This document shows positions 13,545 through 30,868 of a stretch of DNA of 64,000 nucleotides, piece after piece. The position numbers and the translations under genes were made by a program. The stretch's first letter is position 1; each line of letters starts with the position of its first letter. The DNA comes from a phage: sequence record PX441839.1; one strand, 5' to 3'. The notes beneath the pieces are model-generated. The model made no database searches. It was not told the DNA's origin and saw only the letters and a program-made list of their open reading frames with translations.

Positions 13545-13934
13545 TTAAGATTTTTTCTTTTTGGTGGTTGAAGCAGATTTTTGAACTTTGGGTGATTTAA
13601 CCATTGGTCGATGAACTTGTTTCCCACGTCTTACCCCTTTCTTCGGTTTATAAGGCTCCTCCGGCTTTTCATACAACCCGAGGATTGCATTTTCAACGGC
13701 ACTTGTCGGAACAGTCGCCATTCCCCTTCGCTTGGCATCGGGAAGCTGTACCTCCCACACAGACAGCCAATATTTCAAGTCTTCTATACGGTCCTGTGCC
13801 CAAGGATCAGGTTCCTTGATCCCAATGAGTCGTTCAAGCTCATCATATCTCTCATTGAGGCACTTTTCAAGTTTTTCAATTGGCGTTGAAAATACAAACG
13901 CCTCCTTGTCGAAAGGTTGCGTCTTCTTTTGCAT
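13545..13934 (-). CDS. hypothetical basic protein
   Basis: ORF track 13545..13964; Lys-rich C-terminus. Confidence 0.4.
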   Translation of the reverse strand: MQKKTQPFDKEAFVFSTPIEKLEKCLNERYDELERLIGIKEPDPWAQDRIEDLKYWLSVWEVQLPDAKRRGMATVPTSAVENAILGLYEKPEEPYKPKKGVRRGKQVHRPMVKSPKVQKSASTTKKKKS

Positions 13935-13936
13935 AC

Positions 13937-14173
13937 CTACTCCTCCTCTTTGATCCTTACCCATCCCATCTTAAGCATGTGCTGTTCAGAGGTGGGCCAT
14001 TTATTATCAACCACAGCTTGTAGCCACTCATGGTCTATACCATCGTGAACATATTCACTGTACAAGGTGTCTAATGTTTCCACATGAGCAACAGATGCCG
14101 CCCCTGTCCTTACCAAATACTCCCTCAGTTCAGTGACACGTCTGCTTAGTTTACAGCTATCACAATTGCACAT
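13937..14173 (-). CDS. hypothetical protein
   Basis: ORF track 13937..14293 trimmed to internal ATG to limit overlap. Confidence 0.3.
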   Translation of the reverse strand: MCNCDSCKLSRRVTELREYLVRTGAASVAHVETLDTLYSEYVHDGIDHEWLQAVVDNKWPTSEQHMLKMGWVRIKEEE

Positions 14174-14492
14174 TATCCCACTCCAACACAATGAAATGAC
14201 TAAAACGAGAAGTGTGTGACCAACGCATGATGGTAGCATCTGCCCAAGCGATCTTGTCAGGATCTCCGCTGACTTTGATGTGTATGTTGTCACAGTTTTG
14301 TCTTACATCTACAACTTTGAATGTGTAATCCATCCAATTCAGGCGTTTACAGAGATATATTAATTGCTCATTCATCTCGTAAGAGAATTTGTAGAACCTA
14401 GGCTTCTCTTGGGCCTTGTAGATCTCCTCTAGCTTCTCTATCTGCTCATCTGTCATCTCCAGACGGTGCAGATGGTACAAAGTGTCTTCCAT
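14160..14492 (-). CDS. hypothetical protein (110 aa)
   Basis: ORF track. Confidence 0.4.
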   Translation of the reverse strand: MEDTLYHLHRLEMTDEQIEKLEEIYKAQEKPRFYKFSYEMNEQLIYLCKRLNWMDYTFKVVDVRQNCDNIHIKVSGDPDKIAWADATIMRWSHTSRFSHFIVLEWDNVQL

Positions 14493-14579
14493 ATTACCTC
14501 CAAATCGTTAGCAGAAAGCCCCACAATCGATTTTATGGGGTTCAGGTATGCGATGGTATTCCAAACACCACAGAAGTCC

Positions 14580-14792
14580 TTACAGAGCTTCCTGTGCAGT
14601 CGTCCCTTCCTTACATTCAGGACAATACCATACCCCAAGACCGGGGTGTTCTGGATCTTCCACAAAATTGTCAGGTTTCTCATGTAAGACGATTGATTGT
14701 CCAATCGCCGCACCTGGTATTTTGTAGAAGCAGATATGAGGACCAACACCGTAATGTGGGTACTCCCCATCTTTGCATGTCTCACACATCAA
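14580..14792 (-). CDS. zinc-ribbon protein (70 aa)
   Basis: CETC...CPEC paired CxxC motifs; preferred over overlapping 14453..14785 frame. Confidence 0.4.
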   Translation of the reverse strand: MMCETCKDGEYPHYGVGPHICFYKIPGAAIGQSIVLHEKPDNFVEDPEHPGLGVWYCPECKEGTTAQEAL

Positions 14793-15070
14793 ATCATCTC
14801 CATCGTTATAAGTACGTTATCCAGATCGTCGGTATTTAACTGTAGATCAGGATTAATACTATCCTCCACACGATGATAAATCAACCCCTTTTCCACATAC
14901 TGATAAACCACATCATGATATTTTCCCAACATGGTTAACCAGTCACATTCGTAAACAGTGACCACACATACCTTTAGTCCCATCTTTGCTGATCTCCAAG
15001 CTTCCCTCACAGCCATGAGGTGAGCTAATTCCAGATCATCCATCTTATTTTTATTCTTATTCAATAACAT
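14789..15070 (-). CDS. hypothetical protein, first gene of leftward operon
   Basis: ORF track; ATG preceded by AAGAGG. Confidence 0.45.
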   Translation of the reverse strand: MLLNKNKNKMDDLELAHLMAVREAWRSAKMGLKVCVVTVYECDWLTMLGKYHDVVYQYVEKGLIYHRVEDSINPDLQLNTDDLDNVLITMEMI

Positions 15071-15109
15071 TATATAAACCTCTTATGATATCTTCGTCTA
15101 GTGCTGTGC

Positions 15110-15138
15110 AGTATACACCCTGTAGATCAGATGTCAAG
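15110..15138 (-). promoter_or_regulatory. sigma70-like promoter for leftward operon
   Basis: minus-strand TTGACA, about 16-17 nt spacer, TATACT, roughly 35 nt upstream of gene start at 15070. Confidence 0.5.
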
Positions 15139-15164
15139 ACTACCAATTCAAAAAATTTTCAGAT

Positions 15165-15300
15165 AATCTATGTATAAGATCTAAAGATCTATTATAAAAA
15201 GTTATAAGATCTTATTGTTTTTATAATTATTATGAATATAATGAATAATAATTATGGTTTTTATAATTTATGAGTGAAACGAATAAATTATAAGATCAAA
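15165..15300. repeat. AT-rich region with repeated TATAAGATC motifs and 12-bp palindrome ATAAGATCTTAT
   Basis: motif seen at about 15173, 15203 and 15288; putative operator sites between divergent operons. Confidence 0.45.
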
Positions 15301-15340
15301 TGGGGTTCTTATGAGCGTAGCGAATGGGTATAATCTTAAT
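15300..15340 (+). promoter_or_regulatory. promoter for rightward operon (-10 TATAAT)
   Basis: TGGGTATAAT at about 15325-15334, about 60 nt upstream of first plus-strand gene. Confidence 0.4.
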
Positions 15341-15392
15341 ATAAGTATTGTGTGCCTTTTGAGGCAACGACGTAGGTTGTGTGGAGGTGAGG

Positions 15393-15809
15393 ATGATTTT
15401 TCAGTTTGGTAACAGTTCAGTGGAGATTTCAGAAGATAGCTTCATGCAGATTCCTACCCACTGGGTAATGAACTTAAGCGGAGATGACTTAAAGAGGGCT
15501 TGCCTTCTTCGGTGGAGGTTCACATTCTTTGCTGATACGGGACTTTTCCCAGATGCATCCCTATGCTTCTATGAGTCTCAGCAGTCATTGTGTGACCTGT
15601 TTGGGATGTCAAAGTCTAGCCGGACAAAGGTGAGTGCTTGTCTAAAGAGGTTGGAGGCTGCTGGGGTAATATTTATACGCAGGGGCAAGTCAAGGGAGAG
15701 TGGGGAGTTGAAGCCACGGCATTACATTGTCCCCAATGACTCACTGCTTATTGAGAAGTACGGTATACGACCAGACTTGTGGGATGATAAGGAAATAATT
15801 GAAAAGTAA
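15393..15809 (+). CDS. hypothetical protein, possible winged-helix DNA-binding
   Basis: ORF track 15381 is a GTG; ATG at 15393 follows GGAGGTGA. Confidence 0.45.
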   Translation: MIFQFGNSSVEISEDSFMQIPTHWVMNLSGDDLKRACLLRWRFTFFADTGLFPDASLCFYESQQSLCDLFGMSKSSRTKVSACLKRLEAAGVIFIRRGKSRESGELKPRHYIVPNDSLLIEKYGIRPDLWDDKEIIEK

Positions 15810-15867
15810 GTTGACATCCGGTGTGGTGTTTAGTACAGTTTCGACATTGAAAATGAGAGGAGAGAAG

Positions 15868-16158
15868 ATGAATATTCAAGAACAGGTTAAAATAACTTTC
15901 GAAGACCTTGTGGAACTACATAAGAAACGAAAATATCAAAAGGGCCGAGAAAAGAAGGCAATGGAGGATGTGGTATTCTTTTCTAAAGATGGTCATGGAC
16001 TTTCCAAGAAAGAGGCAAACAGGAAGGTTGATGCAGCGTGGGCTACACAACGGGACGCTGTGAACATTGTGTCAGGTATTGATAAGCAGATTGAATATGA
16101 ACTGAATGCCATAGGGCAGATTATCAACTTTGTTGCGGAAAAGGAGAGTGATAAATGA
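15868..16158 (+). CDS. hypothetical protein
   Basis: ORF track 15799..16158; ATG (MNIQEQ) after GAGAGGAGAG. Confidence 0.4.
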   Translation: MNIQEQVKITFEDLVELHKKRKYQKGREKKAMEDVVFFSKDGHGLSKKEANRKVDAAWATQRDAVNIVSGIDKQIEYELNAIGQIINFVAEKESDK

Positions 16159-17069
16159 TTTCTTTACATCTCGATAACTTTAAAAGGGTTAAGCTTGAGT
16201 TTATGACGTTCAGCGGTGGAGAGCGTAACGTCCGTATAGGTGGACTGGATGTCGAAAAAGATGGTGTTCTTGAGTTTGCTGGATATGGGGAGGTTGACCA
16301 TCTCTCTCAACGTAAGTGGGAAAATTATCGTGTAACAGCACATATTCAAAGCTCAGATGATATCATGGATCTGTTACTTCTAAAGGATGCCATTGATCGT
16401 GTGGGCAATGGATGTTTGCGACGTGTATACTCAATCCTGCATCTTCCGTATCTCCCATATGCTCGACAAGACCGTGCAATGGTAAACGGGGAGGCGATCT
16501 CTGTTGTCGTTATGGCAAACCTGATTAACTCTCTTGAGTTTGATGCCGTGTGGATTGATGACCCGCATTCTGATGTTGGTCCGTCGCATATAAAAAACGC
16601 CGTAATTACCCCTCAGCATGAGCTTTTGCTGGACATGTGTAACAAAGATGATGTTCTTTCCGATGGAACAATCATTGTTGCACCTGATGCAGGTGCCATG
16701 AAAAAGGCAAGCAAGTTGGCTGAACTCGCTGATTTACCTCTCGGGACTGGTGGTAAACACAGGGATGTCAAGACAGGTAAGATTACAGGAACAACTTACA
16801 CAGGGCCAGATGTAAACGGTAAACGATGCCTGTTGGTAGACGATATTGCGGATGGCGCTGCCACATTTGTGTGTCTTGCAGAGAAACTAAAATCCCTGGG
16901 TGCAAAACAGGTTGATCTGTATGTAACGCACGGCATTTTCTCAAAAGGGATTGATGACCTTGAGCATATCGATAAGATTTATTCGGCATACCCCTGGAGA
17001 AAGAACGTTAAGTGGAAAAATGGAAAAGGTAAGCTAAATACGGTTGACATCGTAAGCTGGTTCGAGTAA
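16155..17069 (+). CDS. ribose-phosphate pyrophosphokinase (PRPP synthetase)-like enzyme
   Basis: YARQDR and LLVDDIADGAAT match Prs catalytic and PRPP-binding motifs; 304 aa; ATGA overlap with upstream gene. Confidence 0.65.
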   Translation: MISLHLDNFKRVKLEFMTFSGGERNVRIGGLDVEKDGVLEFAGYGEVDHLSQRKWENYRVTAHIQSSDDIMDLLLLKDAIDRVGNGCLRRVYSILHLPYLPYARQDRAMVNGEAISVVVMANLINSLEFDAVWIDDPHSDVGPSHIKNAVITPQHELLLDMCNKDDVLSDGTIIVAPDAGAMKKASKLAELADLPLGTGGKHRDVKTGKITGTTYTGPDVNGKRCLLVDDIADGAATFVCLAEKLKSLGAKQVDLYVTHGIFSKGIDDLEHIDKIYSAYPWRKNVKWKNGKGKLNTVDIVSWFE

Positions 17070-30779: not shown

Positions 30780-30868
30780 TGCCTTAAATACAATACTGTA
30801 CAATCAAAGCGAAATAGTGTACCATTATAAGATAACCTTTCTAAAAACCCCCGAAGGAGTATTCTATA

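Follow-up and report, generated by a model that had tools for sequence, protein, structure and literature searches.

Why should parts of a non-coding spacer be better conserved than the genes that flank it? This question is raised by positions 15071 to 15392 of a 64,000-nucleotide stretch of phage DNA (record PX441839.1; hereafter the window). The spacer separates a leftward gene for a protein of 93 residues (14789 to 15070) from a rightward gene for a protein of 138 residues that starts with the ATG at 15393. The phage is an rV5-like Salmonella phage: positions 14000 to 17000 share 96.7% identity with Salmonella phage SSBI34 (141,095 bp, Vequintavirinae), a figure that rises to 99.7% for the spacer alone; a window position is the SSBI34 position minus 21,078. 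The original prediction had described the spacer as an AT-rich divergent control region, and this description was borne out, with a GC content of 29% and a strong, conserved leftward early promoter. Here we describe a spacer core with clustered GATC boxes and strand-specific hairpins, and we propose, tentatively and as a reading that may well prove wrong, that this core, flanked by divergent early promoters, is a replication origin, or at least the chief site of unwinding and priming. Among the papers searched, which include those on the genomes of SSBI34, CB7 and relatives, none describes the boxes or the hairpins, nor an origin or a regulatory hub of the Vequintavirinae.

Covarying one-strand hairpins in the AT-richest DNA of the genome

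Inside the spacer the GC content falls to 13% over 120 bp, the lowest value in the window, whose next lowest stretch has 29%. The same 120 bp are the AT-richest of the whole 141-kb SSBI34 genome, in which the runner-up reaches 19%, so that the adjacent AT-rich unwinding region of iteron-type and lambda-like origins has a counterpart here at the genome minimum. The genes of SSBI34 fall into four orientation blocks and there are therefore two divergent junctions, this spacer and SSBI34 116,648 to 116,792. The second junction is only 144 bp long and consists of two back-to-back sigma70-like promoters; it carries an AGATCT inside the spacer of the rightward promoter and has none of the box or hairpin elements of 15071 to 15392. 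As a bare promoter pair suffices there, divergent transcription in itself does not call for the extra 180 bp or so of the present spacer.

With the spacer alone as nucleotide query, a search retrieved 31 phage records at 72 to 79% identity, belonging to Certrevirus (CR3, CR8, CR9, PBES02, phiTE, CB7, POP15 and others), to the E. coli A7_1/UPEC06 group and to SSBI34; the spacer is also kept in metagenomic relatives. In a joint alignment with seven relatives, identity to the window was 76 to 90% over positions 15209 to 15298, 63 to 89% for the 93-residue gene and 35 to 69% for the 138-residue gene. Non-coding DNA that equals or surpasses the best-conserved gene beside it in this respect must be functional at nearly every base. 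The 30 bp of highest conservation in the locus (0.90 identity) correspond to a hairpin that we call U2, and the segment to the right of it is not conserved. A coding function for the core was discarded: indels in the relatives break the 13-codon reading frame found in the window, and the short coding sequences annotated at this place in F1M1E and UPEC06 are not conserved.

Two 33-nt palindromes with 11-bp arms lie inside the AT-richest 120 bp, at positions 15223 to 15293. Read on the plus strand, hairpin U1 (15223 to 15255) is made of the arms ATAATTATTAT and ATAATAATTAT around the apex GAATATAATGA (GA AT ATA AT GA), and hairpin U2 (15261 to 15293) of the arms TTATAATTTAT and ATAAATTATAA around GAGTGAAACGA (GA GT GAA AC GA). 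They belong to a family of 17-nt repeats whose third copy, at 38 and 41 bp from the others, is a degenerate plus-strand hairpin, U3 (about 15306 to 15330). Its apex, GA GC GTA GC GA at 15313 to 15323, contains GCGTAGC (15315 to 15321), and its lower stem includes G.T wobbles, the pairing being read by eye and uncounted. The GAGCGTAGCGA block of U3 is kept in Certrevirus and its surroundings are not; the Serratia phage ChuuTotoro has GA-GAC-GGA-GTC-GA at the same place.

The arms change in a concerted way. For U1, 98.7% of the cells are paired over seven distinct sequences or lineages, with compensatory changes at 4 of the 11 pairs, and U2 has four compensatory pairs, one of which goes from A:T to G:C. 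When the 13 copies from seven lineages were pooled, 95.3% of the cells were paired (compare with 70.9±2.6 for shuffled copies), a level that none of 500 shuffles reached. Both sides had changed at 8 of the 13 pairs, and the inner pair is AU in eight copies, GC in three and CG in two. Through all these changes the stems remain purely A/T, except for a single G:C in one clade. The apex of 11 nt, GA-NN-GNA-N'N'-GA, is conserved, specific to the plus strand and not self-complementary, and T-GNA-A is found in 12 of the 13 copies. A covariance model built from the hairpin copies gave 51 bits for U2 on the plus strand and 23 on the minus strand, and 42.8 and 18 bits for U1; it had no further hit, either in the window or across the remaining 85 kb of SSBI34. 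Arms that drift with compensation around a fixed asymmetric centre are the signature of a stem-loop on one strand. A duplex operator for a dimer would keep its half-sites and let the spacer between them drift, so the hairpin pattern does not fit such an operator.

The sequence of the apex indicates how it could fold. On the plus strand the flanking GA...GA can form tandem G.A pairs, and the minus strand would give pyrimidine mismatches; we infer from the sequence that the G.A pairing in the GNA apex is of the sheared type. Folded as single-stranded DNA the hairpins have a modest predicted stability (U1, −5 kcal/mol, z-score −2.9; U2, −5.4 kcal/mol, z-score −3.5). That the stems stay A/T-only points to selection for easy duplex melting rather than for a stable RNA helix. 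As DNA, GCGNAGC and GNA mini-hairpins are exceptionally stable, and their RNA counterparts are far less so (melting temperatures of 76.5°C and 39°C, respectively); such DNA hairpins have been reported at the primase sites of G4, St-1 and alpha3, at ssiA of RSF1010 and at the hairpin promoters of N4 (PMC13037366). With single-strand initiation (ssi) signals the present locus shares an evolutionarily maintained hairpin on one strand and a GNA-type apex, with GCGTAGC in U3.

In a viral collection the strict pattern of the hairpin unit was found in only four close relatives, the loose pattern TTATGANTGNAANGAATAA gave only unrelated AT-rich matches there, and Rfam gave no match to positions 14000 to 17000 at E≤1. 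Hairpin ends of IS200/IS605 or REP/RAYT elements were considered and rejected, as no Y1 transposase is supported nearby. The minus-strand reading frame at 13545 to 13964 is annotated in SSBI34 as a putative transposase-like protein; neither it nor its PVP-SE1 counterpart has a Pfam match at E≤0.1, and the annotation, apparently taken over from rV5, is unsupported.

GATC boxes and the adjacent winged-helix gene

The original prediction had pointed to at least three copies of TATAAGATC, one of them forming a perfect 12-bp palindrome. Both observations are correct. The copies begin at 15173, 15203 and 15289, all on the plus strand and nowhere else in the window, and they make up three of the four copies in the SSBI34 genome; the palindrome ATAAGATCTTAT (15204 to 15215) is the sole exact copy in window and genome. 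Together with an additional box, the first two of these sites form a cluster of three GATC boxes at 15173 to 15215, namely TATAAGATCT (15173 to 15182), AAAGATCT (15183 to 15190) and TATAAGATCTTAT (15203 to 15215), which contains the palindrome. A fourth box, TATAAGATC at 15289 to 15297 on the plus strand, overlaps the 3' arm of U2.

A motif search, which had been suggested as a check, placed the boxes above background frequency. For TATAAGATC three copies were observed in 64 kb against 0.57 expected, 3 of 100 shuffles reaching three, and for AAGATC/GATCTT four sites against 0.24 expected under a first-order model (P<0.0005). Plain GATC is common in the phage (321 in 64 kb), and only the extended box and its clustering are unusual: three of the top six matches to TATAAGATCTTATA among 732 genomic GATC sites lie in this spacer, and nowhere in the SSBI34 genome is (A/T)AGATC more densely clustered. 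Moreover, AAGATCT is the one 7-mer that recurs in the corresponding spacer of each of eight diverse phages, among them Seunavirus PVP-SE1, Henunavirus Hena1, Avunavirus Av-05 and ChuuTotoro. Number and spacing are variable, with three to six boxes per relative at irregular intervals of 8 to 22 bp; a metagenomic relative, L144, has five boxes 11-11-11-8 bp apart. Six lineages show a strong enrichment; in four others, whose GATC sites have different flanks, it is weak or absent. The proposal that the repeats are operators for a dimeric regulator is thus supported in part: the boxes exceed chance and AAGATCT is shared by eight relatives, but the best-conserved elements, the hairpins at 15223 to 15330, are unlike a duplex operator.

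Elsewhere in the genome, at SSBI34 122452 to 122676, three AAGATCT-like boxes (TTAAGATCTATAA, TGATCTTATAAAA and AAAGATCTTTAT) form a second and smaller cluster upstream of an early TTGACA promoter. In the present spacer, the last box of the cluster is followed by a T-rich tract, GATCTTATTGTTTTT (15208 to 15222, plus strand), whose equivalent TCTTnTTGTTTT is found in all genera examined. With two mismatches it resembles the oriC 13-mer, GATCTnTTnTTTT. This resemblance is not significant by itself because 32 such matches occur in the window, two of them in the spacer.

The rightward gene (15393 to 15809, plus strand) had been singled out as encoding a candidate DNA-binding protein, and the structure prediction agrees: a confident AlphaFold model, with a predicted local distance difference test score (pLDDT) of 90.9, gives the 138-residue protein a winged-helix fold with a beta hairpin at its N terminus. 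In at least five genera this gene is always the first rightward gene at the junction, in synteny with a GATC-rich and AT-rich spacer. The family is restricted to phages, with 14 clusters among 1.84 billion representatives. Its functional PHROG matches, all weak (E-values of 2e-7 to 5e-4, over the N-terminal DNA-binding part only), were exclusively to replication initiators, O-like proteins and DnaD-like loaders; 8 of the 14 members matched phrog_270 (best E-value 2e-7), 5 matched phrog_428, and phrog_186 and phrog_678 were matched by 3 each. The Pfam matches HTH_36, RP-C and Cdc6_C were all below the cut-off, and a sequence search of the PDB gave no match with an E-value below 0.07. By these comparisons the protein is more like replication initiators than like any named family of repressors.

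The recognition helix (S-R-x-K-V-S-x-F-L) and the wing (KPRHYI) are conserved across genera, and the GC-containing palindromes near the promoter of the gene differ. A recognition helix and wing shared by the genera should have a DNA target that all of them share. We infer that the GATC box is the best candidate for this target, and the boxes are thus probable sites for the winged-helix protein.

The product of rV5 gp075 (NC_011041), called a replication initiation protein in RefSeq, was considered as an orthologue of the winged-helix protein and rejected (hhalign probability 1.7%); the two can only be analogous. Downstream of rv5_gp075 there are four palindromic repeats, TGTCCGT-GAT-ACGGACA, with a spacing of 21 to 22 bp (minus strand of the extracted piece at about 3300 to 3100, or about 65.0 to 65.3 kb of the record), followed by an AT-rich stretch with GATC sites. 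The layout is that of a lambda-like origin.

Promoters and other features of the locus

A minus-strand promoter with TTGACA and TATACT about 17 nt apart had been predicted. The promoter, P_L, is present (15110 to 15137), but the two hexamers, at 15137 to 15132 and 15115 to 15110, are separated by 16 nt. It scored 11 out of 12 in the promoter scan, it has the −35, −10 and spacing of a Certrevirus-type sigma70 early promoter, and its −35 hexamer is invariant in eight related phages. Upstream of the −35 sequence, an A/T tract (AAAATTTTTTGAATTGG read on the minus strand; 15139 to 15160) is conserved in the alignment of related phages; it resembles an UP element in an unscored comparison by eye with the consensus. 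A GATC is located inside the P_L spacer at 15125 to 15128, and the Certrevirus P_L spacer has two. The early promoters of Certrevirus are of the UP-element type, AAAA-N3-TGTTGAC-N19-TATAAT, and P_L, with its putative UP element, matches this type (PMC7344957).

The rightward promoter is more difficult to define. The predicted plus-strand TATAAT is indeed found at 15329 to 15334, but its −35 sequence (TTCTTA) is poor and the scan called no promoter there. The other candidate is a conserved element, AAGTATTGT, at 15343 to 15351, which reads TAGTATTGT in other genera. In relatives, the winged-helix gene is immediately preceded by a TTGACA promoter (GGTTGACATGTGG). At 15376 to 15392, the window and SSBI34 read GGTTGTGTGG, which is 3 bp shorter and hence lacks the −35 sequence, so that the winged-helix gene must here depend on weaker upstream elements. 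A good sigma70-like promoter, TTGACA-17-TACAGT (10 out of 12), follows immediately after the stop codon of this gene (15811 to 15839), ahead of the next small gene.

Between these elements lies a GC-containing palindrome, TGCCT-TTTG-AGGCA (15353 to 15366; −4.6 kcal/mol folded as DNA). In other genera an analogous palindrome occurs twice, immediately before a TTGACA. In the genera devoid of U1 and U2 these are direct copies placed between the conserved TAGTATTGT and the TTGACA of the winged-helix gene, for example ATTCCC-N4-GGGAAT-AATTAG, TGTCCCC-N4-GGGGACA and TGTTCC-N5-GGGAACA. In the extracted pieces the pairs are at 2370 to 2425 in PVP-SE1, 2370 to 2420 in both Hena1 and Av-05, 1085 to 1135 in KP13-16 and about 150 to 100 (minus strand) in L148. 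The arms vary with the genus yet remain complementary, and the window has a single copy. These palindromes may be operators or else hairpins at the 5' end of an RNA. An intrinsic terminator or a small RNA in the spacer was discarded, as the scan called no terminator and the segment right of U2 is not conserved. Comparison by eye with the consensus sites of ArgR, Fur, CRP and H-NS revealed nothing convincing. The leftward operon begins with the 93-residue gene (14789 to 15070, minus strand), which encodes a small alpha/beta protein; it was dropped as a candidate DNA binder after a fold search that gave nothing informative.

A sequence related to the boxes, TTATAAGATA, had also been reported upstream of 30869. 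It is present at 30825 to 30834, but it contains no GATC and sits where late genes carry the motif TG(N1-2)TAA(A/T)ATA; it is therefore probably unrelated to the boxes, and its sequence probably represents a late-promoter-like −10 rather than a related operator. The motif TG(N1-2)TAA(A/T)ATA recurs 20 to 40 nt upstream of terminase and structural genes, often just past a terminator hairpin. It occurs eight times on the plus strand in the late region (at 22532, 23946, 27052, 37233, 44140, 47613, 54684 and 56076) and twice on the minus strand, and it looks like a late-promoter −10 comparable to TATAAATA of T4. As late genes carry this motif instead, a role of TATAAGATC as a late promoter was rejected.

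Two observations concern other parts of the genome. ARAGORN called 10 tRNAs at 20173 to 22361. A tRNA-like sequence at 20346 to 20428, beside the called tRNA-Met, was not among them; its acceptor stem measures 7 bp (GCGCGGG/CCCGCGC), its T arm (GGGGGTTCGAATCCCTC) is canonical, and TTCTAAA could be its anticodon loop, the CUA of which would read amber. The AT-rich runner-up of SSBI34 (19% GC; 139761 to 140231) is near the convergent junction and the ends of the record; it contains two copies of TTCACGTTCCCACGG plus flanking inverted sequences and could be relevant to packaging or replication.

Origin, operator or leader

A strong promoter, GATC repeats and strand-specific hairpins in the AT-richest stretch, beside an initiator-like gene, make this locus look more like a replication origin than a simple operator region. 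If the spacer core is an origin, events could proceed as follows. Host RNA polymerase would fire the strong P_L and the weaker rightward promoter or promoters, the first rightward product being the winged-helix protein. This protein would occupy the boxes, (T)ATAAGATC(T), binding to the palindromic ones as a dimer, and would thereby exert promoter feedback and mark the origin. The A/T-only tract at 15212 to 15300 would then be opened by protein binding, by the negative supercoiling between the diverging transcription units and by the N6-methyladenines of the GATC boxes. Two or three hairpins, each with tandem G.A pairs and a GNA triloop as its cap, may then form on the plus strand, and these hairpins would serve as entry or priming signals for the primase-helicase and DNA polymerase of the phage. 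Genes for both enzymes, as well as for an N6-adenine methyltransferase, are indeed among those of SSBI34 (PMC8879037).

Several observations weigh against an origin. U1 and U2 were not found in PVP-SE1, Hena1, Av-05 and KP13-16, though the winged-helix gene and the GATC sites are present there, so that the architecture of such an origin would not be uniform in the subfamily. DnaA boxes (TTATNCACA) were found in the spacer only as one-mismatch matches, at background frequency and none conserved, and the spacer contains no IHF consensus. The oriC 13-mer had to be abandoned as an origin marker, as its matches are within chance. So had the GC skew: its minima fall at both divergent junctions, with the global minimum of the cumulative skew at the other one, and since they mirror gene orientation and mark strand switches they are uninformative. 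The second box cluster, at SSBI34 122.5 kb, looks more operator-like, and the similarity of the winged-helix protein to initiators is weak. Finally, in a transposon (HIDEN-SEQ) map of the Vequintavirus Bas54, a region of about 2 kb between the divergent genes bas54_0134 and bas54_0135 received no insertions, and its authors suggest that this locus is important (bioRxiv 10.1101/2025.11.20.689424). Bas54 belongs to a different genus, and this may be a locus other than the present spacer.

Could the spacer serve transcriptional control only? The GATC boxes would then be operators for a dimeric winged-helix protein, or sites sensitive to Dam and SeqA, that repress P_L, activate a weak rightward promoter in an early-to-middle switch, or both, and the AT-rich palindromes would be bent DNA or additional sites for proteins. 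Autoregulators classically show this layout, in which a small winged-helix gene comes first behind its own control region. The boxes lie at about −70 to −112 from the start of P_L, which is strong and conserved, one of them is perfectly palindromic, and a rightward promoter without a −35 sequence would suit an activator. Three similar boxes are found upstream of the early promoter at SSBI34 122452 to 122676, and GATC occurs within the P_L spacer (twice in Certrevirus) and within a promoter spacer at the other junction. Yet the best-conserved 90 bp are the hairpins and not the boxes, whose number, spacing and flanks vary; a fixed asymmetric apex with covarying arms on one strand is the reverse of a duplex dimer operator; the other divergent junction needs none of these elements; and the only functional matches of the protein are initiators. 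We thus regard control of transcription alone as a serious but rather unlikely explanation. A further one, which we consider improbable, takes the plus-strand hairpins for structured RNA, either a small RNA or the leader of the rightward operon. Such a leader could act in antitermination through the many terminators of this 44-kb operon, in the manner of HK022 put or lambda nut-boxB, or offer repeated sites to an RNA-binding protein. The tandem hairpins do lie on the sense strand of this operon, with conserved loops and covarying stems, the RNA fold has a z-score of −3.1 on the plus strand, the wobbles in U3 and in the outer pairs of U2 are compatible with G.U on that strand only, and TATAAG at 15203 could be a −10 sequence just upstream of U1. 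However, the scan found no credible plus-strand promoter upstream of 15223, none is conserved in the relatives, and Rfam is silent. Stems of eleven A-U pairs kept through compensatory changes would be unusual for a functional RNA, and GNA or GCGNAGC mini-hairpins are, as seen above, much less stable as RNA (PMC13037366).

Two other explanations carry far less weight. Clustered GATC boxes and a phage adenine methyltransferase recall the pac site of P1, and the locus heads an operon that later contains the terminase; the hairpins would in this case be a structure recognized by a nuclease or by the terminase during packaging or other DNA processing. This is very improbable: pac normally lies in or next to the small terminase gene and the large terminase gene starts 8.6 kb downstream, no deposited genome of the group starts here, and the conserved protein next door is a winged helix and not a terminase subunit. 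AT-rich DNA also yields many short repeats and promoter-like matches by chance, and the promoter scan gave 6 sites with 5.0 expected. A spacer of no specific function is nevertheless practically out of the question, already refuted by a conservation equal to that of a well-conserved gene and by the compensatory changes; the motif enrichment (P<0.0005) and the genome-unique features likewise speak against it.

Taking the proposed origin a step further, a large double-stranded DNA myovirus might use a new type of DNA hairpin, extruded by supercoiling and present in two or three copies between divergent early promoters, to start replication or some other kind of templated synthesis. Its primase-helicase or another polymerase would read these hairpins once the small, initiator-like winged-helix protein has docked on methylatable GATC boxes. 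We put this forward as a doubtful but attractive idea. The new type would combine an A/T-only stem of 11 bp with an internal loop of tandem G.A, a covarying helix of 2 bp and a triloop of the GNA kind. If this is true, the mini-hairpin principle of the ssi signals, known from single-stranded phages and RSF1010, extends to the chromosome of a 140-kb lytic phage, and hairpins acting as DNA would be natural, evolutionarily validated GNA mini-hairpins at work in a double-stranded genome. The rV5-like phages are widely used as broad-host-range agents in therapy and biocontrol, and the locus is a small and precise target of about 180 bp plus one protein of 138 residues. An origin here would permit rational engineering, such as shuttle replicons or conditional replication, and would give insight into how a T7-like replisome is loaded on a phage that depends on host RNA polymerase.

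How does the locus compare with known systems? The early promoters of N4 are also DNA hairpins extruded by supercoiling, whose GNA-type triloops (GCGGAGC) act as initiation signals. However, their stems have 5 to 7 bp and they need a dedicated virion RNA polymerase. No hairpin-reading RNA polymerase is annotated in SSBI34, and Certrevirus was reported to have no RNA polymerase gene (CB7 paper, PMC7344957), so the locus is not a promoter of the N4 type. HK022 put and lambda nut share with it two tandem stem-loops near the start of an early operon. They are GC-containing RNAs downstream of mapped promoters, in contrast to the A/T-only stems found here with no evident promoter upstream. The p4 switch region of phi29 and classic divergent operators likewise consist of a short divergent spacer with repeated sites for a small phage DNA-binding protein, a model that leaves the strand-specific covarying hairpins and the extreme A/T-only composition unexplained. 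With E. coli oriC there is a resemblance in the AAGATCT boxes followed by T-rich runs in the AT-richest DNA, in Dam-positive enterobacterial hosts of a phage that has its own adenine methyltransferase. The locus is nonetheless not of the oriC type, since it has no DnaA boxes; its matches to the 13-mer consensus are no better than chance.

In lambda ori with its O gene, in P1 oriR with RepA and in RepA_N plasmids of the pSK41 type, short repeated protein-binding sites beside an AT-rich unwinding region accompany the gene of a winged-helix origin-binding protein, a layout resembled by the putative binding sites, the AT-rich stretch and the initiator-like gene found here. There too a palindrome lies near the promoter of this gene, and in P1 oriR, as in oriC, the AT-rich part carries clustered GATC sites. 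The present protein differs in having about 138 residues that comprise the DNA-binding domain only, without a helicase-recruiting domain, and in falling below the family thresholds; the boxes vary in number and spacing, there are no DnaA boxes, and conserved hairpins take the place of plain 13-mers. The locus also calls to mind RSF1010 oriV with its ssi hairpins, but only some of the defining features that could be tested are shared with these origins. The complementary-strand origins of G4, St-1 and alpha3 and the ssiA and ssiB signals of RSF1010 are strand-specific hairpins of about 30 to 40 nt with GNA or GNNA caps and sheared G.A pairs at which primase starts (PMC13037366). The predicted hairpins of the present locus have 11-bp A/T-only stems and a tandem G.A internal loop, and they belong to a 141-kb double-stranded myovirus. 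In RSF1010 the two ssi hairpins are located inside an iteron origin next to an AT-rich stretch, one on each strand, whereas those described here all lie on the same strand.

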